Shown here piece after piece: positions 1-62,020 of a DNA stretch of 64,000 nt. Origin of the DNA: an uncultured Gemmatimonadaceae bacterium (GTDB lineage: Bacteria; Gemmatimonadota; Gemmatimonadetes; Gemmatimonadales; Gemmatimonadaceae). The notes under the pieces were generated by a model. It ran no database searches, was not told the DNA's origin, and worked only from the letters and a program-made list of their open reading frames with translations. Numbering within the stretch: the first letter of the stretch is position 1; each line of letters starts with the position of its first letter. The position numbers were made by a program, and so were the translations under genes. Location: assembly GCA_963829055.1 (NCBI GenBank), contig CAWHHI010000011.1, positions 160,001 through 224,000 of the forward strand, written 5' to 3'.

Positions 1-1807
1 CCAGGAGATAGTCCAGCGCCACGGCGCCGTTAGGCGCCTGTTGCACGACGTATCCGACGGCCTGCAGCGCCCGCGCGGTGATCGCCCGGACCATGCCTTC
101 GTCTTCGACGACGAGCACGCATTCGCCCTGCCCGCGCGCCGTCGGGGCGACGCCCTCCTCCACCGCGGGATCGGCGTCGACGAACGGCAGGTACACAGCG
201 ATGGCCGTTCCCGCGTTGATGCCGCTCTCGATCGTCACGTAGCCGCCCGACTGACGCACGATGCCATACACCATCGACAGTCCCAACCCCGTGCCCTGCC
301 CGAGCGGCTTGGTCGTGAAGAACGGCTCGAACGCGCGCGCGACGGTCTCCGGCGACATGCCCGTCCCATCATCACGAACCGTGATCCGGACGAACGGGCC
401 GGGCTCGACCTCATCGATCCGGTGCGCGGCCAGCGTCGTCCGACGCACCTGCACGCGCTCGGCGTGTACCGTCACGACGCCGTTCGTGTGCGTCGCATCG
501 CGCGCGTTCGCGATCAGGTTGATGAGCACCTGCTCGAACTGACTCCGGTCCGCGATTGCGCGGAGCGCGATCGGCGACGTCCCAATGTCCAGCCGTCGGT
601 CCGAGCCCAGCATCCGCCGCAACACCGGCGCGAGATCGGCGATGACCGCGTCGATGTCCACGACCGCGGGCTGCAGCACCTGGCGCCGGCTGAACGCGAG
701 CAGGTGCCGCGTCACCTGCGCGGCCCGACCGCCGGCCTTCACCATCTCCTCGACGTCCGCCCGCTGCGGATGGTCCGCGCCTAACGCCGCGAGCACGAGC
801 TCACCGAATCCCAGCACCGCCGACATCATGTTGTTGACTTCGTGCGCCATGCCGCCGGCCATCTCACCGACAGCCTGGAGGCGCTGCGCCTCACGGAGCT
901 TCTGGTCAGCCTGCACGTGATCGTGAATGTCGGTGGTGGACGCAAGCCACTTCTCGCCACCGTCCACGCCATCCTGGATTCTGAGTACCGTCGTCAGGAC
1001 CGTGCGCCACTCGCCGTCATACCGGCAAAGCCGGTGCTCGATCTCGAACTGCTCGACGTGATCGCGCACGGCCGCCAGCCACTCGGCCTTCACGCGCTCG
1101 CGGTCATCGTCGTGGAGCAGTTGCTGCCATCCGTCGCCGTGCAGCGCCTCCGCATCGCGACCCGAGAAGGCAGTCCAGCGCGCGTTGCAATAGTCGACGA
1201 ACCCGGCCCCGTGTGCCGTACAGATGAGCTGCGGCACGGCGTCCGCCAGCGTGCGGTATCGCTTCTCGCTTGCCGTTAGGCGGAGGTTCGCATCGATCGC
1301 CTCGGTGCGCAGGAACGTCTCCGCTTCGAGCCTGCTATCGCGATCGCGAAGCTGCTCGTCACTGGTGCTCCGCTCGTCGTTGACCGCTTGCTTGAGGCGG
1401 ATGACTTCGGTGACATCCTCGACCGAGTGAATGAGATAGGCAACCTCGCCATCAGGGCCGAACACGGGCGAATTCAGTGGGCTCCAGTGTCGTTCCTCGA
1501 ACGCGCCGTTCGGCCGGCGGATGTCGTACTTCTGCACGGGCATGCGATCGGGGCGGCGGGTCTCGAGCGCGCGCAGCAGTGACGCGCGAAGGTTGCGGAC
1601 CCCGTCAGCAGCCGGATCGTCAGGGTTGTCCGGGAAGATCTCGAACAGGCCACGGCCCAGGATCTGATCGCGCGCGGTCATGGTCGCGGCGAGGTACGCG
1701 TCAGAGACGCCGAGGATCCGGAGGTTCGGCGCGAGCAGGAGAAAATTTCCGGGCGCGCCATTGAAGACGGTGTGGTAGTCGGGTCGCGCTGGGTCGTCTG
1801 GTGCCAT
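1..1807 (-). CDS. PAS-domain hybrid sensor histidine kinase/response regulator (3' end outside window)
   Basis: My translation from ATG 1807 (GAGG upstream): MAPDDPARPDYHTVFNGAPGNFLLL.. PAS, H-box AGGMAHEVNN, FEPFFTTK and GTGLGL ATPase motifs, receiver start VLVVEDE; one frame throughout. Confidence 0.92.
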   Translation of the reverse strand, partial: MAPDDPARPDYHTVFNGAPGNFLLLAPNLRILGVSDAYLAATMTARDQILGRGLFEIFPDNPDDPAADGVRNLRASLLRALETRRPDRMPVQKYDIRRPNGAFEERHWSPLNSPVFGPDGEVAYLIHSVEDVTEVIRLKQAVNDERSTSDEQLRDRDSRLEAETFLRTEAIDANLRLTASEKRYRTLADAVPQLICTAHGAGFVDYCNARWTAFSGRDAEALHGDGWQQLLHDDDRERVKAEWLAAVRDHVEQFEIEHRLCRYDGEWRTVLTTVLRIQDGVDGGEKWLASTTDIHDHVQADQKLREAQRLQAVGEMAGGMAHEVNNMMSAVLGFGELVLAALGADHPQRADVEEMVKAGGRAAQVTRHLLAFSRRQVLQPAVVDIDAVIADLAPVLRRMLGSDRRLDIGTSPIALRAIADRSQFEQVLINLIANARDATHTNGVVTVHAERVQVRRTTLAAHRIDEVEPGPFVRITVRDDGTGMSPETVARAFEPFFTTKPLGQGTGLGLSMVYGIVRQSGGYVTIESGINAGTAIAVYLPFVDADPAVEEGVAPTARGQGECVLVVEDEGMVRAITARALQAVGYVVQQAPNGAVALDYLL

Positions 1808-1955
1808 GACCTCGAGCTCGTTCTGCGGCAGCTTCGCCGGCCGTGCAGGCGAGATGGTACCTCGAAGCTGCGCTCGCCCGAGCGCTACTCAGGCAATGTA
1901 GGTGGCGGCCGGCCACCGCCACCAGACGTTGCGAGCTCGATTCACATGCGCACGA

Positions 1956-2822
1956 CTATTTCGCTGGTGTCATCTCGCGCAGCGTCAGGGCGAGCGACCC
2001 GAGGACCGGCACATGGCTGCGGAGCATCACGAGCGTGCGCGCCGAGTCGTCGGTGAAGTACACCTCGGCGTTGCCGCCCTGCCCGAACAGGCCGCTCGCG
2101 TTGGTGATCGTCGGCTGGACGACGATCGTCTCGAACGTGCCGGCGGGCACCGTGATCGTCCGCTTGCCGACGACGCGGATGATCACGTCACGGCCCGACT
2201 TGAAGTAGCGAGGGATCGTATCCACGTCCCCGACGCGGAGCGGCAGCGTGCGGACGTAGAACAGGAACGACACGTCATCGAGCGGCTCGTCGGTCGAGAG
2301 CGAGTCGACACGACCGCTGAGCGTCTCCCGATACGTCCCCTGCTCCGGCGCGATCTCGTAGCGCCGCTGGCGCGTGTGGCGGAGCTCCTTCTGATTCTGC
2401 TCGAAGCGCCGCGAGACGAACTGCTGCGGGTCGAACCACGAGTCGAATCGGTCGTCGACCTTGGCGAACAAGAGCCCGCCCTTCACCTGCAGCGAGGCGT
2501 GCACTGTATTCCGGCCATCGATTTCTTCCTGACCAATGACCTGAAACGAGCCGGTGCCTACCTGGTGCCCGCGAAGCTCCACGTCGTACACCCCGCGCTC
2601 ACCCATGGCCACGCGATACCCGGAAGCGCTCGCCTTCGGGGCGGAGCTGGCGGCGCTCGGAGTGATCTCAGCGGCCGGGGTCGTGATGCCAGTGCGCGTC
2701 GTGAACGCCTGTGCCTGGGCAACTCCAGCTGATGGCGAGACCAGACCGGCAGCGGCCGCGAGAACGCCAACCAAAGCGAGCCTTACGCGGTCGGTGCGGG
2801 TTGTCGTGGTCGTGGATGTCAT
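1956..2822 (-). CDS. secreted DUF3108-family protein
   Basis: Likely start MTSTTTTTRT with GGAG RBS and signal peptide; PLDDVSFLFYVR and ITVPAGTFETIVVQP motifs. Confidence 0.8.
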   Translation of the reverse strand: MTSTTTTTRTDRVRLALVGVLAAAAGLVSPSAGVAQAQAFTTRTGITTPAAEITPSAASSAPKASASGYRVAMGERGVYDVELRGHQVGTGSFQVIGQEEIDGRNTVHASLQVKGGLLFAKVDDRFDSWFDPQQFVSRRFEQNQKELRHTRQRRYEIAPEQGTYRETLSGRVDSLSTDEPLDDVSFLFYVRTLPLRVGDVDTIPRYFKSGRDVIIRVVGKRTITVPAGTFETIVVQPTITNASGLFGQGGNAEVYFTDDSARTLVMLRSHVPVLGSLALTLREMTPAK

Positions 2823-3338
2823 GGTCCTGTCTCCGGTCGAATCGTTGCGACGGGAGCCCGCATTCTCGCGATCAGCCGCGTGAATCGTCGCTCCACTAGT
2901 ACGTCGAAACACGGTCGGCCGGATCGACACGACTTCGCGCGGCGCGCGAGAAAATGTTGTCGGGAGCATTGGATTGCGTCGCATCATAGACCCTCGGTAG
3001 AACGCTCCGCCTGGCGACGGCTGCCCGTTGGCTGCCGCTATTCCGGTGAGCGATTGTACGAGGGGGATGCTACCGAGCGCCCTGGCATAGACCGTCAAGG
3101 CGCCCGTCAAGCCGCTGCGGCGCAACCGCTTGCGGCGAATCACGCGAGTGCCCGCGTGGGGGCGGAACCGCCTTCTCGTTTACTCCGTCACGAGAATGGC
3201 CACGTTTGTGCGTGCGCAGCGGCGGTGCCAATTCTGCCCGTCCAGGTGGATGTCATCGTGCGTCATCGCGTGCCGCGCGGTCGCGTGCAACGGCGCACGT
3301 CGAGGCGGGCACCGCCCCCGGAATTTGGAGGTCTACAC

Positions 3339-4206
3339 ATGCTCCCTCGACGATTCGTACTCGCGCTCGCCGGCCTTGTCCCGATCGTTCAGCGGCTGCG
3401 CACCCGATCAAGCGGTCGCGCCGCTCGCGACGCCAAGCACGCCCAGCGCCATCGTGTTCGGCACGCCCGACGTCACCAACACCTACAGCAACGTCGCCGC
3501 GTTCATTGTCCGCGCACCTGATGGTCGCCTGTTCCCGGTATGCACGGGCACGCTCATCGAGCCGACCGTGGTGCTCACGGCGGCTCATTGTACGTCGTAT
3601 GTGGAGAACGTCCTGGTACCGCGCGGCTATACGGTGTACGTGAGCTTCAGCAACCTGATCTCCTTTGGGTCGCTGACCAACGCTGCCACGACGGCCTCGC
3701 TGATCGCCGTCACGGACATGATCACGAACCCCGACTACAGCCAGCGCCAGAGCGACGTCGGCGATCTCGGCCTCCTGATCCTCGCCCAGGCACCCGCCGG
3801 AATCACCCCCGCGACGCTGCCGACGCTCGGTCTGCTCGACCAGCTTGCGGAACAGAACGGTCTCAAGGGTGCGAGCTTCACGGTCGCGGGGTACGGCGTG
3901 CAGGACCGCGTGGTCGGCGGCGGCCAGCCATCGTTCACGGACGCGAACCCACTCTACCGGGGTTACGCGATCGAGAGCTTCCTCGCGCTCAACAAGGGCT
4001 ACCTGCGGCTCTCTCAGAACCCGGCGACGGGCGACGCCGGAGCCTGCTACGGCGACTCGGGCGGCCCGAACTTCCTGTCGGTGAACGGGCAGCAGATCCT
4101 CGTCGCGGTCACCGTCACGGGCGATGCGGTCTGCCGCGCGACCAATGTCGTGTACCGCCTCGACACGGTGTCGGCACAGACGTTCCTCGCGGCGTACCTG
4201 CCGTGA
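3339..4206 (+). CDS. S1 trypsin-like serine protease, probable lipoprotein (frameshift ~3390)
   Basis: GGAGG RBS then MLPRRFVLALAG; TAAHC, DLGLL and GDSGGP catalytic motifs. Confidence 0.92.
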
Positions 4207-4235
4207 TTGCCGACGCTGCCTAACGCGCGTCTTCG

Positions 4236-4282: not shown

Positions 4283-4299
4283 TGTCTACCCAGGAACGC

Positions 4300-4831: not shown

Positions 4832-5548
4832 CTAGCTCACCGAGGTGCTTTGCTGGAGACGCGTCAGCGTCCACATGAAGCGCCGGATCTTCGCATAGGC
4901 TTTCATCGAGACGCCGGCGTATCGGCGAAATGACACCGCGAGATGTTTGCGGCTCACATCGAGTTGCTCGTGGAGCGAGGCGACACGCAGGTTGCCGTGC
5001 GCCTGCTCGATGCGCTCGGCCGCAATGCGCACGAACTCCGGCACTGCCTCGCCGTTTGCGCGCTGTGTGCGGAGGAACGTCTCGAGCGCCTCGAACCGAT
5101 TCGCGACCGTCGTCGCGGACAGCGCTCGCTCGCGCAACGCATCGCCGCCCGACTCGATGAACGTGTCGAGATCGACGATCCGATTCACCGACTCGACGAC
5201 CCGACGTCCTAGCAGAGCGACGGCGCCGAGGGCGTGCAATCGCGCGGAGAGGAGATGAGTGCCCGCGAGCGATTCGATGATGATGGCGTGCTCGTGCAGG
5301 CCGGAGAACCAGGCTCGCTCCCATACGCCTTGACCCGTCGCGCTGAGCACGCGGTGCGGTGGGCCGAGGTTGATCATCACCTCGACCGCACCGTTAGGCA
5401 GCAGCGTCTCGCGGAACGCGCTCAGCGCGCCCTCGACTTCCCAGTACTCCAGCACGAGCCCGCGAAGATCATCCGCGGGCTCCGCCCGACTCAGCCGCCA
5501 CGCGCCGGGTGCGGCCGAGAACTGGAATTCCTGCGTTGGACCTGGCAC
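4832..5548 (-). CDS. AraC-family regulator, apparently C-terminally truncated
   Basis: ETLLPNGAVEVMINLG N-domain, first HTH VSRKHLAVSFRRYAG; stops before a second HTH. Confidence 0.8.
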   Translation of the reverse strand: MPGPTQEFQFSAAPGAWRLSRAEPADDLRGLVLEYWEVEGALSAFRETLLPNGAVEVMINLGPPHRVLSATGQGVWERAWFSGLHEHAIIIESLAGTHLLSARLHALGAVALLGRRVVESVNRIVDLDTFIESGGDALRERALSATTVANRFEALETFLRTQRANGEAVPEFVRIAAERIEQAHGNLRVASLHEQLDVSRKHLAVSFRRYAGVSMKAYAKIRRFMWTLTRLQQSTSVS

Positions 5549-5866
5549 GGCGCGGAAAATAGCCCGCGCCAGTGCTTCACATGCAACTCGGCACCTTGCT
5601 CTTCCCCGCAGGTGGCGCGATCGCTGATCGCCACGCGCCTTCAGGCGACCGCGTTAGGCACGGGTCAGTGTCAACTCGCCGGCTGTCGATCGGCGCCTAA
5701 CGTGTACGCGCCGACCCACGGACGCGCGCTACTTCCCCGTCGACCGGCGCGAAACGGTTGTGCTCGCCAATATGCGGTACCGCCAGTCCGACGCGTGCGC
5801 ACCACTCTTGCTACTGGATGCTGCTGCGGGGGCGCACATCGGGCCCGCGCCGAGCCGGGAGGCACA

Positions 5867-6236: not shown

Positions 6237-7937
6237 TTAGGGCGTGACGACCACGCCTGAGGTGCGACGCGTGAGCTCCGCGATGTCCACCCCCGGGTCC
6301 TTGCCGCCTCGTCCCTTCGCCTTGTACGGCGAGGTCGGACCCAGCGAGTAGTCGGCTCCGAGTCCGATCGCCGCGACGGTGCGCGGGTACCAGTTGGTCG
6401 CCGGGTAGAGTTTGGAGAACTGCCCTTCGACGCCACCGATGACGTTGCGCTCGAACGACCACGAGCGGTCGCCCGCCATCGCGGTGAACCCCGCACTGTG
6501 CAACTGCCCCCCGTCGTAGTTGACGGCGTAGCCCCCAGGCGCGGTAAACACGTTGTCCGAGATCGCGATGTTACGCGCCGCGCCCCCGGCGTACGCGAAG
6601 GCGAACACCAGCCCGCCGGAGCCGGGCGCGTGGACGAACGTGTTGTGCGAGAGCGTCACGTCGCGGAGCGGATGCGTCCACAGGTTGAGCGCGCCGCGAC
6701 CCTCGGCCCCGATCTGCGCGAAGAGATTGTTCTCGACCGTCACACGCTGCACCCAGACGTTGGTCCGTACCTGCCCGGACTCGTCGTAGGCCTGGAGGTT
6801 CAGCGCGATCGGCGCGTTCCGGACGATGTTCCACTCGAACGTCACGTCGCTCGTGCCCTCCCAGAGGCAGGAGCCGCAGGAGTCCTGCGACGACTTGAAG
6901 ACGATCGCCGATTCCTGCCCGGCGGGCCACGTGTTCTCGAACACGTTCCCCTCGTACAGCACGCGGCGCGCGTTCTTGAGTTCCGTCAGGTTCTTGACCG
7001 TCCACTTTCCGCGCCACGCCGGGTCCTTCGCGACGTGGTTCCGGCGGATGGTGATGTCCGACGGCGAGAGGTTCGCGATGCCCGGATCGGCGCCGCCAAA
7101 CATGATGTTCTCGCCGGCGCCGCCCAGGAAGTTGTTCTCGATGAGGTAAGGCCCGGGCCCGTTCCACCCCTCGATCGCCTGCGAGTCCGAGCCTAACGCG
7201 TGGCACTCGCTGAACCAGGAGTTGATGACGATGGTGTTCGCCGAGTTGAGGGCGAGGCACCGGGTGGAGTTGAGCGTCGGCGAGCCGTGGATGTAGACGC
7301 GGTCGAGAATGATGTCCCGAGGCACCGCCGCGAGCGTCGTCTGCGTTTGCCCCGCCGGCTTGTCACCGCCATCTCCGAGCCACACGAGCCCGTACTGCAT
7401 CGACGTGACCGGGAGCGTGCCAGTGACTTCGATACCGACCAGGCGCCACCCACACGTCGGGTTCTTGGTCCGGAGCGCTGGTTCGTGATTCGGCGTGATG
7501 AGCTTCGGGAGCGCAGCCGCCGCGCGCGGCGTTAGGCGCTCACCCTCCGGCGTCGTGAGGCCCGCGCCGACGATCGTCACCCAACCGGTGCAGGACCTGG
7601 CGGGAAGGGTAAAATTGCCGCGAAATGTCCCGCTGAGGATGAGGCTGTCACCCGCGACGGCCTTGTTGAGCGCGGCCTGCAGGTTCTGCGGCGCCGAGAC
7701 GCGCTTCGTCGCACTGGACTTTGGCACGGTGAGGGCCGGCACGGCGCGCGGCCGCTCGGCACGCGCGGGATCCGCTGAGCCCACGGTGCCTGGTACCGAC
7801 GCCGAATCGTTGCGCGCCTGGGCCGCGAACTGCTCGGCGACCTTCACAGCGGGGCCAGTGTCGGACGCGGTGTTCTGCGCACCGAGCGGGGCCGCAATGA
7901 GGGCGAGCGAGAGAGCCAATCGGAGACAGAGCGGCAT
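6237..7937 (-). CDS. secreted right-handed beta-helix (pectin-lyase-like) protein
   Basis: Signal peptide MPLCLRLAL..AQ; repeated IENN/IRRN/FENT strands; GPGPYLIENNFLGGAGEN. Confidence 0.8.
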   Translation of the reverse strand: MPLCLRLALSLALIAAPLGAQNTASDTGPAVKVAEQFAAQARNDSASVPGTVGSADPARAERPRAVPALTVPKSSATKRVSAPQNLQAALNKAVAGDSLILSGTFRGNFTLPARSCTGWVTIVGAGLTTPEGERLTPRAAAALPKLITPNHEPALRTKNPTCGWRLVGIEVTGTLPVTSMQYGLVWLGDGGDKPAGQTQTTLAAVPRDIILDRVYIHGSPTLNSTRCLALNSANTIVINSWFSECHALGSDSQAIEGWNGPGPYLIENNFLGGAGENIMFGGADPGIANLSPSDITIRRNHVAKDPAWRGKWTVKNLTELKNARRVLYEGNVFENTWPAGQESAIVFKSSQDSCGSCLWEGTSDVTFEWNIVRNAPIALNLQAYDESGQVRTNVWVQRVTVENNLFAQIGAEGRGALNLWTHPLRDVTLSHNTFVHAPGSGGLVFAFAYAGGAARNIAISDNVFTAPGGYAVNYDGGQLHSAGFTAMAGDRSWSFERNVIGGVEGQFSKLYPATNWYPRTVAAIGLGADYSLGPTSPYKAKGRGGKDPGVDIAELTRRTSGVVVTP

Positions 7938-8123: not shown

Positions 8124-9812
8124 TCACCTCGCCGGCAGCCGTTGATACGAAACATCCTCCCCTGATCGTACTTCGCTACGTCGCTCCCGTTCCGTCCGAC
8201 CGTTCACTTCCAGCAACCACACCTTCCGATCGCGGAAATACTCGATCAGCCGCGCGTTCTTCGCGGCGCCGAGGTCATGCGCCCACACGACGTCGGCCCG
8301 GTCGATGTCGGCCCCGTTTCGCACCCACTCGTCGTGGAAGTTGTGGCCCGGCCCATATCGTACGATCACGAGGTCCTTCCCAGCTTCGGACCGCAGCTGG
8401 CGCTCGATATCGGCCCGGCGGCGCGCCCACTGCGACCATTCCGGCGTCGCGCCCGTCGTCAGTGTGCGCACAAGCGGGACTCCGAGCTTCGCGAGTTGAG
8501 ACGCCGTCCAGAATGCGAGGACGAAGGCGACGACGTACTCCCCGACGGCAAAGCGGCCGAGGCGCAGCCCTCGGCACCACACGAGGCAGCTGAAATAGAG
8601 AACGATGAACAGCGCGGTTGCCGGTGCCGCGTAGTGCAGCTGGTACCACGACGAGAGTGTGAGTCCCGTGAGAACCACACAGAGACAGACGAGGGCCAGT
8701 CGCATCCACCGGTCGCGGAGCACAATCGGCAGCACGAGGAGTGGAGCGAGAAGCCACACCTGAAGGAAGAACGAGAACGTGGCCTTCAACCGCGCTGCGC
8801 TTCGCGACGCGTATCCCGCCGGTGAGCGAAGCGAGTCGGCGCTCGCCAACTCCCATTGCTGATACTGTCGCATGAGCGTGTCGCTCGACAATGGAAGATC
8901 TCGTCGCTTTTGCCAGACGAAATCAGGTCCGCGACCGTACTCGTCGTGATACGCCAGATACGGGAACTGGGTCGCCCGCCCGGTGACCGCGTGGTTGTAG
9001 CGGAGCATGAACGCAGCAGCGACGACGATGACAGCGGCCACTGGCAGAACCACGGATCGGATTCGGCGTCGCGGGCTCAAGTCCCTTCCTCGGACGAGCC
9101 GCCAGAGCACGACGACCGCGACCGGCGCACAGAGGAGCGCGCCCTCGTACGGTCTGCTGTTGGCGAGCAGCGCAGCGCCGAGGGTCATGAGAACGGCGTC
9201 GCGCGCCCGCGCCGTCTCGACCACGCGGCGTGCGCCGCCGAGCACGAGCGCACCGCCTAACGCTGCCACGGAACCGCCCCAGTACTGGAAGGTCCAGTAG
9301 GTAGAGGCGAGCCTCATCGCGAGAGCCAGCGCGCCAGCGAGCGCCCACGTCGGGCCGACCCACGCCCGCAGCATCCAGTAGACCGCGGCGCACATGAGCG
9401 CGAACGAGAGCCACACGCCGACGATCGGCTTTCCGGCCAGGGTGATGCCGAGCGAGATCGCCATGGCCTGTGCAGGCGGATACTTCGACGCGTAGGTCGG
9501 GTGCTGCAACACGTGGAACGTCTGAAGGTGCTCGGCCATCGGGTGCGGCGGGTTGGTCAGCCGGCCCGCTGCGAACGTCTCGGCGCCGAGCAGATAGCTG
9601 CCCTCGTCGTGGATGACGGGCTCGGGAAAGCCGACACCGGCGGCGCCCGCGACGGCCAGCAGGAACGCGGTAACGAAGACCAGAGCGAGCGAGACCCACG
9701 GCCGGCCCGCGAGCGCGGCGTTCCATCGACGCACCCGCTCGATCATGCGGCCCACAGCCGAAAAGACCCAGGACATGCGCGAAGCGAAGCTCATCAGTCG
9801 GGTTGCCGCCAT
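8124..9812 (-). CDS. polytopic membrane protein, GT-C glycosyltransferase-like
   Basis: HDE motif after first TM, SKYPP, about 10 hydrophobic segments; start may be 9746. Confidence 0.65.
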   Translation of the reverse strand: MAATRLMSFASRMSWVFSAVGRMIERVRRWNAALAGRPWVSLALVFVTAFLLAVAGAAGVGFPEPVIHDEGSYLLGAETFAAGRLTNPPHPMAEHLQTFHVLQHPTYASKYPPAQAMAISLGITLAGKPIVGVWLSFALMCAAVYWMLRAWVGPTWALAGALALAMRLASTYWTFQYWGGSVAALGGALVLGGARRVVETARARDAVLMTLGAALLANSRPYEGALLCAPVAVVVLWRLVRGRDLSPRRRIRSVVLPVAAVIVVAAAFMLRYNHAVTGRATQFPYLAYHDEYGRGPDFVWQKRRDLPLSSDTLMRQYQQWELASADSLRSPAGYASRSAARLKATFSFFLQVWLLAPLLVLPIVLRDRWMRLALVCLCVVLTGLTLSSWYQLHYAAPATALFIVLYFSCLVWCRGLRLGRFAVGEYVVAFVLAFWTASQLAKLGVPLVRTLTTGATPEWSQWARRRADIERQLRSEAGKDLVIVRYGPGHNFHDEWVRNGADIDRADVVWAHDLGAAKNARLIEYFRDRKVWLLEVNGRTERERRSEVRSGEDVSYQRLPAR

Positions 9813-9938: not shown

Positions 9939-11555
9939 CTGAACACGCAAGCCACCACCGCGCCACGCGCGATCCTCGTACTCGCCGCCGCTATCGCGCT
10001 TACGCTCCTCGCGCCGCAGCTCGACTTCGTGCCGATATGGGACGGGTGGGCGTACGCCGAGTGTGCGGTCGACGTGGCGACGAATCGATTTGCCCTGTAT
10101 TTCCTCCGCTGCTACGACCATCCCGCGTACGTGTACTCGGGGTTTCTCGGCGCCGCTCAGTTGCTCGACGTTGGCAACCCCGTTCTGCTGTTCGTCGTCA
10201 ACGCCCTGGTTCTCGCCGCGGCAACCGTCGGGTTTCACAGGTTGATGCGTCGGGCATTCCCAGGAGAGGGCCACGAGACCGACATCGCGCTCCTGACCTC
10301 GGCGTTTCTCCTGCAGCCCGCGTTTCTCGCGTCGGTGATCCAACCGGGGCTCGACCTTCCGGTGCTGGCGGGCACGGTCTGGTGCACGGTGCTGATCCTC
10401 GAGCGTCGCTGGTTCTGGTGCGCCGCCGTGGGAATGGCCGCGGCCTTCTCGAAGGAGACCGGCCTCCTCGTCTACGGCGTGCTGCTCGGCTGCAGCGTCG
10501 TATGGTTGCTCGCGCGTACGCCAGGACCGCTCTCGACCAGGCTCCGGGCCCTGATCCCGCTCGCGCCGACTATCGTGCCGATCGTTGCCTATGCCGGCTA
10601 CGTGCTCGTGTTCAGTATCTTCCGCGCCGGACAATCGCCGGTGTGGAACACCGGTGGTAAGCTGCCGTTCGTCGTGAAGCTGATCACGACCCGGATGGAT
10701 CCCGCCACCGCGAGCTATCTTGCGATGCTGTTCGTGCTCAACTTCGCCTGGGTTCCGTCTGCCTGGGTTGCGGCGGACGCCGCGGTCGGCCTGCTTGGCC
10801 TCGCGCGACGTCGATCGGCCCGAGGCCTGCCGGGCGCGGATCGGGCAGTGATCGGATTCCTCACGCTGGCGGCAGTCGCCACGCTCATCACGCTCACGCG
10901 GTTCGTCACGTACAGCAACGTCAGGTATCTGATGGCGGGAACCGCGCTGCTGCTCGGCGTCGGATACGTCGCGCTCGTCCGGCTACACCTGCGATCCGAC
11001 GTTAGGCGCGTGGTGTTGGGAATGTATGCCGCACTGCTCGCCGTGTCGGCGATACGAACCGTGGACCCGGTGTCGCGATGGCTCTGGGGAACGTTCCCGT
11101 TCGGCTCCCACCAGATGCTGGATATGACGAGCATCACGGGAGAATGCTGTGGCGCGGGCCGGGATCAGTTGGTGTACTCGCTCGAGTTCACGCGACTTCA
11201 CGACCTCACCGACAGTGTCGTGACGACGCTCCTTCGCGATACGGCGACGGTCATCGGCGTCCCGTCGGGCATGCGGTATCTCACCGTCGGTCGGATCGAC
11301 CGTACGGCGTGGAAGAGAACACTCCGGCGTGAGGGAGCGTTCGAACCGAAGGTCATGACCGGGCCGGCGGTCGGCATTGGGGAACCGCCGCGGTCCTTGC
11401 TCTACATTGCCATGCCTAACGCCAAGGACTCTACCTCGCTCGCGGACCTTTCCAGTCTCTACGACGTCGCACCCGAGCGCCGGTTCGAGGCCAGCGGCTA
11501 TTCTGTCTCCGCGTACCAGATGACGCTGAAGAGCGGCGTCCGGGGGGCGCCCTGA
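9939..11555 (+). CDS. polytopic membrane protein, GT-C (ArnT/PMT-like)
   Basis: Frame open from CTG 9939 (start uncertain); WD..DHP loop, FSKETG, NVRYL motifs, many TM segments. Confidence 0.65.
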   Translation: MNTQATTAPRAILVLAAAIALTLLAPQLDFVPIWDGWAYAECAVDVATNRFALYFLRCYDHPAYVYSGFLGAAQLLDVGNPVLLFVVNALVLAAATVGFHRLMRRAFPGEGHETDIALLTSAFLLQPAFLASVIQPGLDLPVLAGTVWCTVLILERRWFWCAAVGMAAAFSKETGLLVYGVLLGCSVVWLLARTPGPLSTRLRALIPLAPTIVPIVAYAGYVLVFSIFRAGQSPVWNTGGKLPFVVKLITTRMDPATASYLAMLFVLNFAWVPSAWVAADAAVGLLGLARRRSARGLPGADRAVIGFLTLAAVATLITLTRFVTYSNVRYLMAGTALLLGVGYVALVRLHLRSDVRRVVLGMYAALLAVSAIRTVDPVSRWLWGTFPFGSHQMLDMTSITGECCGAGRDQLVYSLEFTRLHDLTDSVVTTLLRDTATVIGVPSGMRYLTVGRIDRTAWKRTLRREGAFEPKVMTGPAVGIGEPPRSLLYIAMPNAKDSTSLADLSSLYDVAPERRFEASGYSVSAYQMTLKSGVRGAP

Positions 11556-11744: not shown

Positions 11745-11761
11745 AGCGAATCGCTCGTCGC

Positions 11762-12546
11762 CTAACGCGATGACGGTACGCGCTCTCTCAGCAAGCGGGC
11801 GATCTCCCGGAAATACCGAAAGGACAACCCCGCCTGGCCGAGGTGGAAGGTGAGCGGGCGCCGCAATACCGAGGTGAAGCTCGTGGCCAGAAGCCGGGTT
11901 ACTCCTTCGTCCGCGTAGACATCCAGGATGAGCCGGAGGGTCTCGGCGAGCTTCTCGGGGGCGGTTCGGAGCAGGCAGGTGGCGAGCAGCGCTCGCACGT
12001 CGTCGGCACGTCGCCAGACCATCGGGCGACTCGAATCATGAATGGTCTCGAAGTCGAACCAGTGGGCGACTCCGCGCCTCGAGGTCGACCATCACGTTCT
12101 CGGCCATGGCGTCGCCGTGGGTAAATCCCCGGGCGATGGAACTCGGCGAGGGCGACGACCGCCAGTTCGATGGCCCTCTTCCGGACCGACTCCTCGAGCT
12201 CCGGATCCTCCAGCAGCGTCGCCAGCGTCTTTCCCGCGAGGCGAGGCAGGACGAGCGTCCCGTCGGCGTCGATCCGAATCGACAGTCCCGTGGAGGCTCC
12301 GGTAGAGCTGGCGCTCGCGCTCCTCCCACTCCCGCTGCGGGAGGACTCGCACGCCGGTATCCAGGAGCCTGACGAGCGGACCACCCAACCAGACCAGGAG
12401 AGGCGCGTAGAACAGGCGGTGACTTTCGCACCTGAAGCTCGCCGTCCTGGTAGACGATCCGAGCCTTCGAGTACCTCCCGGACCGGAGCAGCCGCCCCAG
12501 AGCCAGGCACAGGAGCGAAGTAGGCACGCTCCGCCAGCTCCCGCAC
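11762..12546 (-). CDS. kinase-like protein (Kdo/WaaP/APH-type fold), frameshifted
   Basis: Stitched LVLPRLAGKTL..LAEFH..GFTHGDAMAENVMVD..WFDFE; last gene of operon. Confidence 0.6.
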
Positions 12547-14300: not shown

Positions 14301-15004
14301 CACTCGCCTCGAGCAACCCCGCCAGTGTGCTCGGTTCGTATCCGGTCTCGAGGAGCTCGCGCGGTGAGCCGAAGGATCTTCGGCCAGAAGCCCCGCTCCA
14401 GATCTCTGGGGTGAATCGCCAGCGTCGGGACTCCACGATCCAGGGACTGAGACAGCCACCCGATCCCGTGGCCGAGGTGCCCGAGCCAGCCCCAGCGACC
14501 ACAGTCCCAGGTCCAGGTCGCCAGGGGAATCTTTCGCCCGGCTCGTCGACTCGAGGGAGAAAAAGCCCAGGACGTATTCCAGTCCCAGGGTGTTGCCGCC
14601 TAACGCGCGCACGTGTCCCGCCTGCCAGGCCGGTGCGAGGAACCCCCGCGCTGGCTCGCCGAAGACCTCGGTGAAGACACGCTGTCCGCGCTCGACGAGT
14701 GCGTCGGGTTTCTTCCGCGTCCAGGCCGTTCATCTCGTCGCTGCCCTCGGTGAGCAACGTGGTCGGCCCCCAGCCTCGCCGACGTCGATGGAAGTAGCCG
14801 TGCAGGAGCAGCTCGTCGGAGGCCTCCTGGACGAGCTGGCAGTAGTCGGGATGCGCCGCCAGTGGCCACTCGCCGTGCCAGTTGGGGACCACACCGAAGC
14901 GAGAGACGACGCCCGACCAGCGGCGCGAGGTCCCGGATCATCACCCGGGTCTCCCGGGCGTAGGCCGGAGTGGCGTCGTGGATACAGACGAGGAAGGGCC
15001 GCAT
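14281..15004 (-). CDS. DUF2334/polysaccharide deacetylase family protein, frameshifted
   Basis: LVCIHDATP, LLLHGYFH, GFLAPAW, LAIHPRD NodB-like motifs across frames. Confidence 0.82.
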
Positions 15005-15059: not shown

Positions 15060-15273
15060 GCCTCAACGCCTCCGTCGGGTGCTGCCACTTGTTGACCGCT
15101 TCGAAGTAGAGCGTGCCTAACGTGATCGCCACCGCGATCGCCACCGTACCGACCAGGGTGAGCCCCGGATACCGCGCCAGAATGCGGACCCCGACCTTGA
15201 AGTCCAGCCAGGAGAATCGGGTCTGCGCCAGTGAGGCGGTGGAGGCGCGGCTACGAACGGAGAGCTTCGGCAT
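15060..15273 (-). pseudogene. N-terminal shard of ADOP/MacB-type ABC permease
   Basis: SWLDFKVGVRILARYPGLTLVGTVAIAVAITLG then homology ends. Confidence 0.75.
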
Positions 15274-15470: not shown

Positions 15471-15602
15471 CGCGCATCATCACACGCCCAGCGGCCTCGG
15501 GATGCGACCCGATCCGTAGGCCCGCGGCCTAACGACCGCACCGCAGCGGGCAGTATCACTGCGCCCACACGCCGGACCCGTCCATTCCCAACCTCGTGGA
15601 TC

Positions 15603-41560: not shown

Positions 41561-41783
41561 ACACCGCACCCGAATGTGCCGACAGCGGCGGCGCACCAGC
41601 GCTCGTAACATCAAACGCGGAAGGATTCCCCCCACGTTTTCGGCGAAGGACTGACTCTATGCGCACGCGTCATGACCCGACCAATCTCGACCACGTCGCA
41701 TTCATCGGCGTCGGCATTGGTATCGTTGGCTGGATTCTCAAGCTTCTGCTTGCCTGACGCGGGCTGTGCTGTATGGCCCTTGC

Positions 41784-47675: not shown

Positions 47676-48443
47676 ATGGCGTGCGAACAGTGCGAGGGAA
47701 TCGAGCTCCAGTTCGGTCGGTCGGCGGCGAGGAAGAAGCTGCGGCAATTTCGCCGCCGCGGCCCGGATAAGACGACCCGGCTACTCGTCAATGCCCTCCG
47801 TGCCGCCCTCGACGGCACGGATACTCGTGGCGTCGTCCTCCTCGACATTGGTGCCGGTGTCGGGGCGATCCACCACGAGTTGCTGGACGGACACGTCGAA
47901 CGGGCCATCCACGTGGACGGGTCGACGGCGCACCTGGCGGCCGCGCGCGACGAAGCCGAGCGCCGCGGCCACGGCTCTCGGGTCGAGTTTGTCCACGGCG
48001 ACTTTGTCGACCTGGCCGGCGCGATTCCCGCCGCCGACGTGGTCACGCTCGACCGCGTCATCTGCTGCTACCACGATATGGAGCGGCTCGTCGGGCTCTC
48101 CGCACGGAAGGCGCGTCGACTCTATGGCGCCGTCTACCCGCGCGATGTCCGGTGGATGCACATCGCAATCCGCGCCATCAACCTGCTCCAGCGATTCAAG
48201 CGGAGCGGCTTTCGTGTCTTCCTCCACTCCCCAGCCGCAATCGACGGCGTCCTGCGAATCGCGGGGCTCGAGCGACACGCCAACTGGCGAACGTTAGGCT
48301 GGGAGGTGGTGATCTACGAGCGAAGGACGGAACCGAGCGCGATAACACCCGAAGTCCCCGCGAGTGAGGGACCCGACGCGTCCCCCGTGTCCTTACCGGG
48401 GCGTTTCGCATCGACCGGCACCCGAATCCGCACGTGTCGTTAG
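47676..48443 (+). CDS. class I SAM-dependent methyltransferase
   Basis: LLDIGAGVG, VHGDF, DVVTLDRVICCY. Confidence 0.9.
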   Translation: MACEQCEGIELQFGRSAARKKLRQFRRRGPDKTTRLLVNALRAALDGTDTRGVVLLDIGAGVGAIHHELLDGHVERAIHVDGSTAHLAAARDEAERRGHGSRVEFVHGDFVDLAGAIPAADVVTLDRVICCYHDMERLVGLSARKARRLYGAVYPRDVRWMHIAIRAINLLQRFKRSGFRVFLHSPAAIDGVLRIAGLERHANWRTLGWEVVIYERRTEPSAITPEVPASEGPDASPVSLPGRFASTGTRIRTCR

Positions 48444-48457
48444 GCGCCGGGATCCAC
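48368..48457 (+). repeat. duplicate of P450 segment 43938-44023
   Basis: 55-nt core GTTTCGCATCGACC..GGGATCCAC with one mismatch, degenerate 5' extension. Confidence 0.9.
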
Positions 48458-50355: not shown

Positions 50356-51441
50356 ATGACACAGCGCCTAACGCGGCTGACGGTGATCCTAGCGGCCGTC
50401 ACATTCTCCGGGTCCGCGTCGGCGCAGCAGCCCGCGCCGGACACGTCAGCGCAGCCGGCCGCCGCGGACAGCGCGCGTTCGCCGTGGCTCCTCGTGCCGG
50501 TGTTCTCGTCGAGTCCCAAGCTCGGCACGGCGTTCGGGGGACTGGGCGCCTACATGCACCGCTTCGATGACAGTAGCCGCGTGTCGCTGTTCGGCCTGGC
50601 GTACCAGTACACGTCCACGAGCTCACAGATCGCCACCGGGTTTGCCCGGACATCGTTCGGCCGCGATCACCATCGCATCGTGCTGCTTGCCGCGTTCGGG
50701 AAGATCAAGAACGACTACGACGACTATCTCGGGACCGGCCAGCCGCTGAAGACCGACGATGACCTGAAGGCGCTGGCGGCGCGGTATCTGTGGCGTGCGA
50801 AAGGAGACTGGTTCGTTGGCGCCCAGGGAAGTGCCGCCAATTTCCAGGTGCTGGGCGCGTCCGCGGAAGACGATCTCGTGCTCGAGACACTGGGCGTGCG
50901 CGGCTTCAAGTCGGCGGGGGTAGGTGTCAACCTGATGCACGATTCGCGCGACAACGAAGACATGCCGACGACAGGCTGGTTCGCGAATCTCAACAACGTC
51001 GCCTATCGTGAGGCGCTCGGCGGCGACGACACGTTCGATGCGTACCGCCTGGACCTGCGCGCGTTCTGGAAGCACGGCGGCGGTCACGTGCTGGCCGTAC
51101 GGCAGTACAACTGGTTGACCAGCGATGCCCCTTCCGGCGCGCAGGCGACGGTGATCCTTCGCGGTTACAAGCAGGGTCAGTACCTCTCACCGTACATGTC
51201 CTCCCTCGAAGTCGAAGAACGCTGGGCGTTCAACGAGCAATGGGGCGCCACGCTGTTCGCCGCCGCGGCGGAGTTGTACGGCGACGCCCCAGTCAAGCTC
51301 GATCGCACCACGTATCCCACCATCGGGGCGGGCGTGCACTTCGTGCTCAAACCCGTGGAGCGCATGATCGTGAATCTCGAGTACGCCCAGGGCGTCGGCG
51401 ACAGCCGGGGAGTCTACCTGAAACTTGGCCACGCATGGTGA
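50356..51441 (+). CDS. Omp85/BamA-TamA-like outer membrane beta-barrel
   Basis: Signal peptide, DSRDN..PTTG, LRGY, terminal YLKLGHAW. Confidence 0.8.
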   Translation: MTQRLTRLTVILAAVTFSGSASAQQPAPDTSAQPAAADSARSPWLLVPVFSSSPKLGTAFGGLGAYMHRFDDSSRVSLFGLAYQYTSTSSQIATGFARTSFGRDHHRIVLLAAFGKIKNDYDDYLGTGQPLKTDDDLKALAARYLWRAKGDWFVGAQGSAANFQVLGASAEDDLVLETLGVRGFKSAGVGVNLMHDSRDNEDMPTTGWFANLNNVAYREALGGDDTFDAYRLDLRAFWKHGGGHVLAVRQYNWLTSDAPSGAQATVILRGYKQGQYLSPYMSSLEVEERWAFNEQWGATLFAAAAELYGDAPVKLDRTTYPTIGAGVHFVLKPVERMIVNLEYAQGVGDSRGVYLKLGHAW

Positions 51442-52527: not shown

Positions 52528-52826
52528 GGGTAGCCCCGGTTTGAGGAACGCGTTCAGGGACCCGCACTATAGCGCCGTGCACCGCGTTGGACACTAGGGG
52601 AACTACGATAGTTATCGCCTAACGCGGTTAGAATGGGCGTACTACGTTAGATACCGGTATGCTGCACGACAACTAACCGTCGCCCGCATGCCTAACGCAA
52701 CGCCTGCACTCCGAAATTCCGCTATCGGTAGCCCTGCCTGAATCGATGCTTGTTCAGGGGTGACAAAACGGCCCCGCAATGAAGGTCGTTGCAGGGCCGA
52801 GAGTTGACACGCAAGCACACGAGGCA

Positions 52827-55099: not shown

Positions 55100-55202
55100 A
55101 GACGACGTCGCCGCGCCGTGCTTACGCGGTGCTTGCCGGAAAAAAACGTCAGGCCCTCGTTAGGCGTGGCGCCGAGGATCGGAAGCTCACAGGAAGTCCG
55201 CA

Positions 55203-58439: not shown

Positions 58440-61400
58440 ATGCGATTGCGCCGCATCCTCCTCATTGCTGCTGCCACTCTGTCGGCCTGCAACGACATCG
58501 ACGGACCTCGTGGCCGCGAGATCAGCCCGGTGTCCGGGTCACAAGTGCGCGATGCGCGAAACGGCGGCGTCACCGGCTTCTATTTCCTGCCGCCGATCGC
58601 GCCGGCAATCACGTATACGGGTGCGTTCGACGCGAAGCGATCTCCTGTCGTCCTGATCTGCCGCCTCGAGGATGCAGCGTGCACGGAATCCGGTCGCGCA
58701 GCTCACCAGCTCGGGATCCGGCGCCGAGCGCGTGCGCGTCAGCATCGAGAACGAGCACTATGGTGTGGAATGGAGCACCCGTGGTCCCGGCCTTCTGCCG
58801 GGTGCGACCTATCGCGTCAGGGTACTCGATGGAGCGACCGAGCTGGGATACGCCGACGTGCGCCTGTTGAAGACCGACGCCGAAGCGAAGGCCCTTCCGT
58901 CCGGCATCGTCGGGGTCGTCTTCGGCTCGACGCTGGCCATCAAGTTCCGCGTCGAAGTATCGACGGTGGGCCCGCCAGTGAACGCGACGCTCGGAGCAGC
59001 CGGCGGAACCGTGCGCGTGCCACTCGGCGCGGGTGGAATCTTCACGCTCGAGGTTCCTGCTGGAGCCCTGGATGCGGAGGTTGCGTTCACCATCACCCCG
59101 CGAGCGCCAATCGCGGGCAAGCTGGCGTCCATCGGGATCGCGCCGGCGAACGTTCTCTTCGCGCAGCCCGCTCGCATCTCCGCTCAGCCTGCCCACGACC
59201 GTCGTATCGACGTTAGGCAAGCCGGCGTTCGTGCTGGGAAACGGCTCCTTTCCCCTGCTTCTCGCCACTGACGCAGTCGAACCCGGAAAGGTCTTCAGCG
59301 CACGCCTCCCGATGCTCGGCAACCTGCCTTCGTTCCTCCGTTCACAGACGGCGACACGAGTCGGGTATGCAATGAACGCAGCAGCAGAGCCTTCGGGAGA
59401 CGCGATCGATCTCGTGATCGCGGACGCGCAACAGGTAATCACCGCCTTTCTCGCAGCGGCTGCTGACCTCGATTCGAAGCGGAGCTTCACATCTGCCATC
59501 AAGTATCGGATGGAAGCCGCGGCACTGGCGCAGTGGGCCGGCTTGGATGATCTGGCGACAGAGGCAATCGCGGCTGGCCAGGCCTCGGCCTGTGCAAAGC
59601 TCGATCAGGTCACTGGTCTCGCCCCGACGGCCCTGGGAACCGAGTTCAGGGATCTCTGGAAGGCTCTCGAGCCCGTGCTCGCATGGGTTGGTGCCGCGCA
59701 GTCGGTCGGACTGAACCCGGAAGAGTGCCCGTCTCTCGCGGCCTTTCGGACCAGCTTGTCCGAGCTCGTCGCTGACTTCGTGACACTGTATACCGCGGCA
59801 ATGGAGCGGTCGCGCTTTCCGAGCAATGCCGAAGGTCTACAGGATCAGATCTACTCTGCTCTGCTCGTCCGGAAGTACGGGTTCCCGCTGGGAATGGATG
59901 CGGACTTCGATCGCATCAAGTCGCTGATTCAGCGACCGCTCGCGCAACGCTATCGAAGGGCCGCGTACGACTTCTGCCGGAGTGACAATAGTCAGCATCT
60001 CATCAAGGAAGTATTCCTCGCTGCGCGTGATTCTGTCATGTACGCGCGCAACCTTCCGCAGGTATCTGCGCTGGGACAACGAGTACAGGCGGATGACGAT
60101 TTCGGGTTCGACGCGGCTGGCCTTTCGGAGGATCTCCAGCTTTGCGGAACCGCCATCGTCGTTACCAGCGAGGATGCCAGGGGGAACAGAACCCTCGAAG
60201 GCGGCATCGGGGGTACCAGCATCCCGGGTCAACCCGAGCGGAGCCTCGACATCGATGCGAACCCACACGGAAAGATCGAGCTCGAAGGTACCCTGATCGC
60301 GTTTCGGTGTGGTGAAGACGTCGGGAACGATGTCATCAATGTCGACTTCAACGGCGTGCGTGTCCGGACGTGGACCCGGCCCCAGCCTACCGCACATTTC
60401 ATCGTCAACGAGACAAAAAAGTTCGATGTCGACAGCCTGGCGATGGTGGCAGGACTGGACGCGAACGGCGGAGGAACCTTTCCGCTGACCCTCAGTCGCG
60501 AAGGAAACGCATGCGGAGGGTCGTACTCCCTCCCCGGCGCAGGCACATCCACGTTGCTCGCGACGATCAACGTGAAGTTCCCGAAGATCGCCGTGAGCGT
60601 CGCTCCGACGACGGCGGCACTCGCGCCTGGAGAGAACAAGACATTCACCGCGACTGTCACCGGTGCGGCCAATACCGACGTCACATGGACGGTGATCGGC
60701 GGCAGTTACGTGGCCACAGGCAATTCCATCACGTACACCGCTGGCCCTACCGCCGGTTCATTCACCGTCACCGCGACGAGCGTCGAGGAGCCGGCGAGCA
60801 GCGCAGAGGCACAGGTGAACGTTGTCGCGCCACCAGCGATCACGCTCGCACTGACGCGCATCGACGGCGGAGCGCAGTCGCAGGTGTCGGTGGCGGCGGG
60901 TAATGCATGCACCCAGAGCTTCTTTCTTCCAACGACGTCACCGCCGCCGGGCGCTGTCACACTGAGCCCCGCGCAGTGTGCAGCAGGAGGAGCAAGCGCC
61001 TCGGCGACCCAGCGATACACGTCGACCGTAACGTCCGGAAGCTTGATGACGTTCACTGCGAGCGGCCAATCCTCCACGAGCTCGGCCGTCGAGACCACGC
61101 GCGGATTCACGCAGGCGTATGCGACGTTCGATTTCGAGGTGAGCGGAGGCGACGTCTCCGTTACACTGAGCGGGCAGTTGAACGCCAGCATTCCGGACAC
61201 GACGAGTAGCACGGAGGCGCGTGCCTCGTTCATCCTGCAGCGCCGTCTCGGTGCGCGCCTGGTCGATAAGCAGGTGGGTGGAAACGCTGGCGACACGCCA
61301 TTCACGACATCAGCGCCTTTGTCCGGAACCTATCGGCTCACTCCCGGCATCTATCGGGTCAACGTGTTCGCCACTGGCGAGGCGGCGGCGGTCATGCGTC

Positions 61401-61574: not shown

Positions 61575-61609
61575 AACGGCCGCGCAACCACGTCGGTTGC
61601 GCGGCCGTT
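61575..61609. terminator. 15-bp stem hairpin
   Basis: AACGGCCGCGCAACC-acgtc-GGTTGCGCGGCCGTT. Confidence 0.75.
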
Positions 61610-61621
61610 CGTTAGGTTCGA

Positions 61622-61663
61622 CTGGGGCGGGTGGATTCGAACCACCGACCTCCTCGTCAACAG
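61622..61663 (-). mobile_element. 3' half of tRNA-Asn(GTT), candidate integrative-element att site
   Basis: Minus strand CTGTTGA-CGAGG-AGGTC-GGTGG TTCGAAT CCACC-CGCCCCA-G; no D arm or 5' acceptor strand upstream. Confidence 0.8.
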
Positions 61664-62020
61664 GCAAAGCGCCAGAAACGGCATCACGTCGCTGACTGCG
61701 AGCGTGCGATTGCCACCCCGCCGTTAGGTCGCACGATGACCAAATACCATCTCTGCCCTTCCGGCGCGCCTGTCGACAGACACAAGCCGTGAGTTATCCT
61801 CACTCGGTTGCGGCGTCTCGATCCAACCGCGTTTGGGTACGGCATTCGGTACTTCCCGCTGCGCGAGATGCATCCGCTCGCGGAGCACGCCGCTGGGACA
61901 GCGGAGGCTGCGGATGGGGTGCGAGGCTGCGCCTGATCGCAACGGCTCGTTAGGCAGAACAGTGACGCCCGATTCGGACATGATCGCCCTACGTCACCGC
62001 GCCGGATGGTGGCCGGCGCG

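Follow-up and report, generated by a model that had tools for sequence, protein, structure and literature searches.

What maintains one asymmetric 8-bp word, GCCTAACG, at dozens of positions on both strands of a bacterial chromosome, much of the time inside genes? The question is raised by a 64,000-nucleotide stretch of DNA from an uncultured Gemmatimonadaceae bacterium (GenBank assembly GCA_963829055.1, contig CAWHHI010000011.1, positions 160,001 to 224,000), referred to here as the window. In our numbering the window is G000:C11:160001-224000, where G000 is the source genome of 7,784,024 bases on 20 contigs. A first-pass annotation of the window had counted 47 copies of the word, split 27:20 between the strands, and had proposed an uptake signal, a chromosome-wide protein binding site or a motif driven by modification and repair. 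We find that the word is the most over-represented octamer of the whole genome, that it is equally a feature of certain members of a second phylum and that its spelling is that of one end of an integron recombination site. We tentatively favor, with confidence a little short of even, the reading that GCCTAACG is an uptake-sequence-like self tag maintained by biased DNA exchange.

Results

A single octamer far above expectation

An exact-match search of the window returned GCCTAACG 47 times, 27 on the forward and 20 on the reverse strand, and the count, the strand split and every coordinate of the first-pass annotation proved exact. Its tally of near-matches was reproduced as well: the window holds 59 single-mismatch copies, 19 of them with CCTAAC intact and 15 with CCTAACG intact. 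One hundred dinucleotide-preserving shuffles of the window, whose GC content per 4-kb bin is 63.5-69.0%, gave a mean of 1.18 copies (s.d. 1.16, largest 5), and none of the 100 reached 47. The excess that had been claimed is therefore real, and it also survives a codon-aware null. In G000 as a whole there are 2,457 + 2,547 = 5,004 copies, with each of the 20 contigs at 0.48-0.80 per kb, and an order-3 Markov model gives GCCTAACG the highest z-score of all 8-mers in the genome (z 296, 19-fold). With the word masked, the Markov expectation is 123, 69 and 60 copies for orders 1, 2 and 3, an excess of ~83-fold at order 3. Twelve within-gene shuffles of synonymous codons predict 163 ± 10 copies in called genes, where 3,419 are found (21-fold), and the proposal thereby withstands the codon-aware refutation test that the first-pass annotation had set. 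Open reading frames (ORFs) were called with a simple purpose-made program that covers 78% of G000, and the assembly contains many split ORFs, so the frame counts given below are approximate.

The G000 assembly resembles a long-read one. The word is not an artifact of this, because all seven genomes of the genus carry it at 2,501-5,112 copies, including the short-read metagenome-assembled genomes (MAGs) G001-G006, which are in 260-1,170 contigs each. Each of 20 public runs from 17 studies, in rhizosphere, soil or freshwater sediment, contains 32-48% of the words sampled from window positions 34001-44000, and contigs from four of these runs, each of a different study, cover that segment. The X1 contig over 38597-39156 departs from the window at 17 letters and 2 gaps. 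Of these, the 14 letters and 2 indels that are listed (40 of 506 differences being listed overall) all fall outside the copy at 38964.

Strand symmetry, spacing and word-free blocks

The strand on which a copy lies behaves as a coin toss in 109 bins of 50 kb (chi-square 114). On contig C16, where GC skew and gene orientation switch near 550 kb, 284 copies lie on the leading and 355 on the lagging strand (44:56), a small lagging-strand bias that matches the excess of antisense over sense copies in called ORFs (1,812 versus 1,601). This lack of replichore polarity argues against Chi or KOPS (FtsK orienting polar sequences), and the same argument, which the first-pass annotation had drawn from the strand split of the window, holds for a word that is strand-symmetric genome-wide.

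The copies repel each other below ~500 bp. Gaps of at most 100, 200 and 500 bp make up 1.4%, 4.4% and 20.0% of all gaps in G000, compared with 6.4%, 12.3% and 28.0% after random re-placement within 20-kb bins, and none of 200 simulations was as low as observed. Among pairs at most 100 bp apart (from 4,984 gaps), 23 are '++', 18 '--', 16 '-+' and 14 '+-', and no orientation is favored.

The blocks C6:5440-55037, C11:0-46789 and C6:591808-623330, ~128 kb in total and as GC-rich as the rest of the genome, contain no copy at all. Their genes, often split, include those for chorismate synthase, peptide deformylase, tryptophan and shikimate enzymes, FtsK and FolD, and with this housekeeping content the blocks are not islands or prophages. 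Several of the genes are duplicated elsewhere in G000 at 47-66% amino-acid identity, all of the blocks lie at or near contig ends, and the contamination estimate for the G000 bin is 3.95%. Most likely, the blocks are foreign or chimeric DNA, and they serve as an internal control with zero words in the same assembly. Word density also varies with the GC content of genes, from 0.24 per kb in the lowest octile to 0.75 in the highest, a trend opposite to the word's own composition.

A bare 8-mer in wobble positions and stop codons

The flanks of 5,003 copies in G000 hold at most 0.13 bits, with G disfavored on either side, and the word is a bare 8-mer. Relative to the masked null, and numbering positions from 0, the enriched one-off variants are G>A (827 copies, 21-fold) and G>C (428, 14-fold) at position 0, C>A (583, 9-fold) at position 2, A>G (1,763, 2.9-fold) at position 4 and G>A (435, 17-fold) at position 7; variants at positions 1, 3, 5 and 6 are at or below expectation. 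Tolerance is thus graded by position, with alternate and end positions accepting single changes.

All four stop-free frames are used, xGC-CTA-ACG by 627 copies, CCT-AAC by 954, xCG-TTA-GGC by 1,343 and GTT-AGG by 463; the two stop frames hold 26 copies and another 1,591 lie outside or at the edge of called ORFs. The imprint on codon usage is large: 1,199 of the 2,609 TTA codons in called genes (46%) and 566 of the 3,517 CTA codons lie inside GCCTAACG. The word's TAA is the stop codon of 148 of the 598 TAA-ending genes (25%), and its TAG that of 116 of the 1,222 TAG-ending genes. Density is maximal at stop codons and remains elevated over the ~90 nt that follow, in either orientation, and amounts to 0.94 per kb outside called genes versus 0.56 inside.

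Word-rich genomes in two phyla

The tallies of relatives, including sets of 41 and 301 genomes, take in the unpublished genome G013, and the set of 301 also G086, G125 and G204; all four are word-poor, and none of our claims depends on them. Outside the genus, G014, from another genus of the family, has 6,360 copies in 5.1 Mb, and most of the remaining genomes of the family and order have 6-60, under the reversed-word control. In a 301-genome sample of the phylum, the word-rich genomes belong to a handful of genera in the same family plus a single genus from a second one. Counts are ~3,900 in G241, ~4,100 in G298 and 4,469 in G305, and 700-1,100 in each of G166, G194, G293, G122 and G212; G294, a congener of G241 and G298, has 66. 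A sample of G294 (L324-L328) contains a small recurring element of tandem CCTGAAC heptamers, whose core 8-mer CTGAACCC occurs 24 times in 184 kb, mostly overlapping and clustered.

When one genome of each species was scanned for pairs of copies separated by 200-230 bp, at least 125 loci emerged, of which those listed comprise 36 from Gemmatimonadota, 46 from Verrucomicrobiota (assigned to Verrucomicrobiae, Chthoniobacterales, Spartobacteria and Verrucomicrobiales) and 43 single loci of other taxa. Twelve of the loci listed match G000 by BLAST, 11 of them Gemmatimonadaceae or Gemmatimonas, with a best identity of 84%. Whole-genome counts bear out the distribution over two phyla: of four Verrucomicrobia, three (3.2-4.3 Mb) contain 5,186, 3,272 and 4,562 copies and one contains 661; an additional Gemmatimonadaceae genome of 6.1 Mb contains 7,821. 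Hyper-abundance is limited to some genera of Gemmatimonadaceae, one genus of a second family and soil Chthoniobacterales. The word's abundance in the second phylum was overlooked in the first-pass annotation, as was the identity with the attC inverse core described below.

Viral contigs gave 120 loci, mostly with just the matched pair of copies, and several that were inspected are one-strand arrays or repeats. Only L223 and L194 reach a both-strand density of at least 0.5 per kb, and we see no case for a phage packaging signal. In 20 kb, contig L206 has 16 copies on one strand against 2 on the opposite one, and L223 has 4 + 8 in 7.8 kb; flanks are unconserved in both.

Identity with the attC inverse core

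One description of integron attC sites gives an inverse core RYYYAAC, a core GTTRRRY and a length of 57-141 bp (PMC3053210), and a wild-type attI1 oligonucleotide in Table 3 of another paper contains GCCTAAC (PMC2811028). GCCTAAC fits RYYYAAC and GTTAGGC fits GTTRRRY. In the word-poor genomes G027 and G025 the few copies bunch on one strand at ~550-bp spacing, in G027 beside an integron integrase gene. At four loci of these two genomes, 41 of the 44 array-strand copies start an imperfect palindrome of 96-142 nt that ends in GTTAGGC or GTTAGAC. When 32 of the 41 sites were aligned, leaving out six long ones (137-142 nt) and three others, the sole invariant block at the 5' end was exactly GCCTAACG. 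Three Verrucomicrobia show the same layout beside intI, with one strand reading GCCTAACGA, and one viral contig has attC-like sites with the same word. In the sites examined from both phyla, GCCTAACG is therefore the attC inverse-core end plus one G, matching at eight of eight positions.

The four cassette arrays of the word-poor relatives are L057 (G027:C95:1-20000), L056 (G027:C80), L058 (G025:C3) and L059 (G027:C43); that on G027:C95 has 22 attC-like sites in 20 kb and that on G027:C80 adjoins intI.

The genome-wide copies of G000 are not attC sites: they are dispersed on 20 contigs, their flanks are unconserved and few begin a hairpin. A regular-expression and folding scan of G000 from inverse core to core gave 55 strand-specific candidates, 35 of which start with the exact word; many of the 55 are one hairpin counted on both strands, so that at most 35 of the 5,004 copies are involved. 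A covariance model built from the 32 aligned sites found no match in G000 among the 150 that were scored of 8,790 first-look candidates. Among the relatives, arrayed attC-like sites occur only in word-poor ones. Scattered attC-like hairpins are seen in G000:C20:110001-250000 (L045, L046), for example at 119250, 119423, 173524, 183881 and 192695, near a divergent integron-integrase-like gene at C20:208041-208958 that scores 265.7 bits against a cut-off of 265.

Candidate readers do not follow word richness

We found no reader of the word: a ComP-like pilin, Vsr with a C5 methyltransferase, RecC, the AddB of G000 and the integron integrase all fail to track richness. G000 encodes a competence apparatus, with ComEC adjoining a ComFB-like gene, DprA and a weak ComEA-like match. 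Four of its ORFs are pilin-like, and its pilus cluster comprises two pilins, a small N-methyl protein, two unnamed ORFs and PilM/N/O. The two unnamed ORFs have no relatives in the Verrucomicrobia searched. ComEC and a PilQ-like secretin are present in G294 too, the word-poor member of a rich genus.

In 24 of 41 relatives an integron integrase exceeds the family cut-off, and among them are the word-poor G007, G008, G009, G011, G012 and G016. It is just over the cut-off in G000 and in three frame-shifted pieces in the richest, G014; no integrase over the cut-off occurs in the word-rich G002 and G004, and none was found in the word-rich G325. Vsr is found in none of eight word-rich Gemmatimonadaceae, G000 among them, and a C5 methyltransferase in one of the eight, which is not G000. 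In a small sample of Verrucomicrobia, the word-rich G322:C15, G323:C4 and G325:C5 carry adjacent C5-methyltransferase and Vsr genes, and the weak G324 is without them. RecC was found in none of 14 Gemmatimonadaceae genomes searched. AddA- and AddB-like genes lie on contig C15 of G000, and the AddB-like protein matched none of ten other word-rich genomes and three word-poor ones (G009, G294 and G008).

G000 also has a second repeat, TGTCATTCCGAGCGGAG, with GTCATTCC present 934 times on both strands; it is genome-wide, for example on C20, and not specific to the window. TGTCATTCCGAGCGGAG resembles the hairpin 'Ssn-related motifs' of Neisseria, which their description ties to a single-strand nuclease that modulates transformation (PMC11893778).

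Individual copies in the window

Each of the copies given here is an exact match to GCCTAACG, with its strand in brackets and its frame assigned from the called ORFs. Those read in the sense direction as xxG-CCT-AAC-Gxx are at 28..35 (-), 5392..5399 (-), 11414..11421 (+), 18813..18820 (+), 21559..21566 (+), 32452..32459 (-) and 35415..35422 (+), and those read as xGC-CTA-ACG are at 1274..1281 (-), 7530..7537 (-), 38098..38105 (-), 43197..43204 (+) and 50366..50373 (+). Antisense copies give the gene strand xCG-TTA-GGC at 779..786 (+), 7191..7198 (+), 9255..9262 (+), 15115..15122 (+), 17120..17127 (-), 17447..17454 (-), 26575..26582 (-), 28520..28527 (-), 39568..39575 (+), 44004..44011 (-), 48292..48299 (-) and 59211..59218 (-), and xxC-GTT-AGG-Cxx at 11000..11007 (-), 38964..38971 (+) and 39807..39814 (+). 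The copies outside or at the edge of called ORFs are at 4218..4225 (+), 5652..5659 (-), 5695..5702 (+), 11760..11767 (+), 14598..14605 (+), 15527..15534 (+), 15930..15937 (-), 20260..20267 (+), 29435..29442 (-), 34455..34462 (+), 35072..35079 (+), 40503..40510 (+), 40764..40771 (+), 41782..41789 (+), 46692..46699 (+), 48438..48445 (-), 52617..52624 (+), 52690..52697 (+), 55158..55165 (-) and 61948..61955 (-).

Five of these sites could be compared with congeners, whose DNA is ~78-81% identical in alignable genes. The copy at 38964 is kept in G001 and G002 and replaced in G003 and G004; that at 39568 is kept in three of four congeners, with GCCTAATG in G002; those at 39807 and 43197 are each kept in two of five; and that at 44004 is kept in two of five, the other three having CGTTAGGT. 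Of 23 pairwise comparisons, which are few and mutually non-independent, 11 show the word retained, versus 18% (3,960 of 21,993) for the remaining 8-mers of those alignments. In the other comparisons, the congener shows either a variant one letter off or an unremarkable GC-rich run of codons. The copies at 48438-48445 and 44004-44011 share the same 20-nt downstream flank (ACACGTGCGGATTCGGGTGC) and are similar upstream, which suggests a duplicated gene segment in the window.

Discussion

The distribution of GCCTAACG is frame-blind, strand-blind, saturating, graded in its tolerance and restricted by lineage, as molecular drive would predict and as is seen for the DNA uptake sequences (DUS) of Neisseriaceae and the uptake signal sequences (USS) of Pasteurellaceae. 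In the mechanism that we tentatively favor, some step in the exchange of DNA between relatives, most likely binding and uptake in natural transformation, would prefer fragments that bear the word, and homologous recombination would then swap word-less alleles for word-bearing ones. Over time this drive would write the word wherever it is tolerated, at wobble positions, in stop codons and in the 3' flanks of genes, and the word would accumulate with the residence time of the DNA. With nothing to be gained from a second copy on one fragment, the word would saturate near one copy per 1.5 kb. Most economically, the specificity of the reader would coincide with the integron inverse core; since the word has the spelling of the local attC inverse-core end, the same reader would also favor DNA that carries gene cassettes. 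DNA uptake as such, a preference for the word in uptake or another exchange step, and a protein that reads it are inferences. Three things hold our confidence below one half: uptake is predicted rather than observed, the search for a reader came up empty, and the same spelling in two phyla and in integron sites asks for a common cause beyond ordinary dialect drift.

Several observations weigh against an exchange tag. The presence of ComEC and a PilQ-like secretin in word-poor G294 means that the machinery does not discriminate between rich and poor genomes, and the two unnamed ORFs of the pilus cluster have relatives of ~30-38% identity in rich and poor members of the family alike. The ComP_DUS family (PF16732) is found in none of the eight word-rich genomes among the 41 searched, and its sole match above the cut-off is in the word-poor G016. 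Since close pairs show no orientation preference, inverted-pair terminators are rare, with 30 such pairs at most 100 bp apart. The uptake dialects of Neisseriaceae are said to replace one another; no other hyper-abundant bare word was found in 200 kb of G008 or 184 kb of G294, and the identical word recurs in two phyla and in the integron sites of word-poor genomes. Such sameness across phyla departs from independently drifting dialects and points to a shared cause. The ORF caller behind the frame counts is crude. Among the papers that our literature searches listed, none joins 'uptake sequence' with Gemmatimonadota. More generally, these searches, whose scope was papers without their supplements, found no description of GCCTAACG as a genomic feature, and of the 478 papers that contain its letters, none of the 20 listed has them in title or abstract; as judged by title, these appear to be unrelated primer or oligonucleotide uses. 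The interpretation of the first-pass annotation is thus partly supported: the overall pattern suits an uptake signal or a chromosome-wide binding site, and the ComP-like pilin whose co-occurrence was to be surveyed was found in none of the eight word-rich genomes.

A more specific proposal, which we regard as unlikely, is that two unrelated soil lineages, some Gemmatimonadaceae and Chthoniobacterales, share an exchange tag copied from the integron cassette boundary, with an uptake or transfer step that reads the attC inverse core. If true, transformation would be coupled to cassette capture and genes would be pooled across phyla, and these genomes, with many genes ending in the word, would perhaps be a cradle of new gene cassettes.

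The word may instead be the binding site of a resident chromosomal protein, a nucleoid organizer or a self marker for defense or repair, with a density near one site per 1.5 kb kept by selection on the chromosome rather than by DNA exchange. This would account for the even spacing and short-range repulsion of the copies, for their strand symmetry and for their depletion in foreign DNA, and a bare 8-bp site is of the size read by one DNA-binding domain. We nonetheless consider this improbable: no candidate was found, selection at 5,000 sites must outweigh the cost of 1,199 TTA codons, and patchy gain within one genus, with G241 and G298 rich and G294 poor, ill suits a core architecture. We know of no protein of the nucleoid or of partition that relies on exact 8-mers by the thousand, pressed into rare codons. 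The match of the word at eight of eight positions to the sole invariant inverse-core block, in two phyla and one viral contig, brings in the integron machinery itself: IntI, or another reader of the attC inverse core, might read the word, which would have spread as decoy or secondary sites or as raw material for cassettes. Integron integrases are common in both phyla, cassette genes often end on the TAA of the attC word, and 148 called genes of G000 end on the TAA of GCCTAACG. Set against this, the presence of IntI does not follow word richness, an attC-like hairpin begins at no more than 35 of the 5,004 copies and close '+-' pairs are no commoner than the others (14 versus 16, 18 and 23). The copies are bare half-sites inside genes, and we know of no integrase activity that makes these, so that this explanation seems rather less likely still.

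A signal acting after entry has a yet smaller claim. A non-polar, Chi-like word could protect incoming linear DNA from a helicase-nuclease or stimulate its recombination, and the same drive would result if imported DNA were integrated with a sequence bias of any kind; because this would act on imported fragments and not in fork repair, replichore polarity would not be expected. The word has the 8-mer length of E. coli Chi, and G000 has the AddA- and AddB-like genes on C15. We think it very unlikely all the same, given the absence of polarity (44:56 on C16), of RecC in the 14 Gemmatimonadaceae and of an AddB match in ten other rich genomes versus three poor ones that have it. Modification with biased very-short-patch repair, a mechanism proposed for cyanobacterial HIP1, would make the word a by-product. 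The adjacent C5-methyltransferase and Vsr genes of three word-rich Verrucomicrobia, lacking in the weak G324, speak for it. Among the rich Gemmatimonadaceae, however, Vsr is found in none of eight and a C5 methyltransferase in one, the depletion of one-off variants is not transition-specific, a mutational process would not space copies apart and the word is non-palindromic; the probability of this option, which the first-pass annotation had also raised, is slight. That the word is a sequencing or assembly artifact, or a side effect of composition or peptide usage, might be thought from the long-read look and many split ORFs of G000. This is already refuted as far as these data go, by the short-read MAGs of the genus that carry the word and by the contigs from public runs, with the listed X1 differences all outside the copy at 38964, by the 21-fold excess over a codon-aware null in four frames and its presence in non-coding DNA too, and by zero copies in ~128 kb of equally GC-rich DNA of the same assembly.

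Sequence-specific DNA uptake is, to our knowledge, known from only two families, both of host-associated Proteobacteria, with one receptor still unidentified. The full statistical signature of uptake tags is now seen in soil phyla that are abundant and for the most part uncultured. Should the word be read in an exchange step, it would show how soil bacteria choose DNA, link transformation with the capture of integron cassettes and provide a simple sequence marker of membership in a gene-sharing group. If a chromosomal protein reads it, the word would represent a new kind of genome-wide architectural or self-recognition code. Either way, it is a precise bait for pull-down, uptake and binding experiments.

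Among known systems, HIP1 of cyanobacteria is likewise an octamer that occurs inside genes in very large numbers. It is a palindrome with a link to methyltransferases, whereas GCCTAACG is asymmetric and neither a C5 methyltransferase nor Vsr was found in G000; the label 'HIP1-like', used in the first-pass annotation, does not fit a non-palindromic word. Chi, read by RecBCD or AddAB, and KOPS, read by FtsK, resemble it as over-represented 8-mers, theirs being read by a DNA-processing machine. Chi and KOPS are polarized by replichore, whereas the word divides 44:56 across the point where the skew of C16 switches; no RecC turned up in 14 Gemmatimonadaceae, and AddB is not co-distributed with the word. 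With integron attC sites the word shares its letters: in those examined from the same taxonomic order and from Verrucomicrobia, it is the invariant end at the inverse core with one G added, and its TAA is often a stop codon. It differs in that the copies in G000 stand as bare half-sites, lacking a palindrome, a partner core at 40-130 bp and a cassette array, and in that the presence of an integrase is independent of richness.

The comparison with DUS and USS is mixed. Inverted-pair terminators are common in those systems, unlike here, with 14 '+-' and 16 '-+' pairs at most 100 bp apart; a ComP-type receptor was not found in the eight rich genomes, and uptake is here a prediction. Richness is patchy within a genus, the two word-poor relatives sampled have no alternative dialect, and an identical word that equals an integron site occurs in two phyla. 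In its other properties the word is like them. It is short and non-palindromic, present roughly once per kb on both strands, and placed inside genes in any open frame against codon preference. Competence machinery is encoded in G000, as the same genes are in word-poor genomes. As with DUS and USS, the copies are spaced more evenly than chance, scarce in foreign DNA and common to related species.

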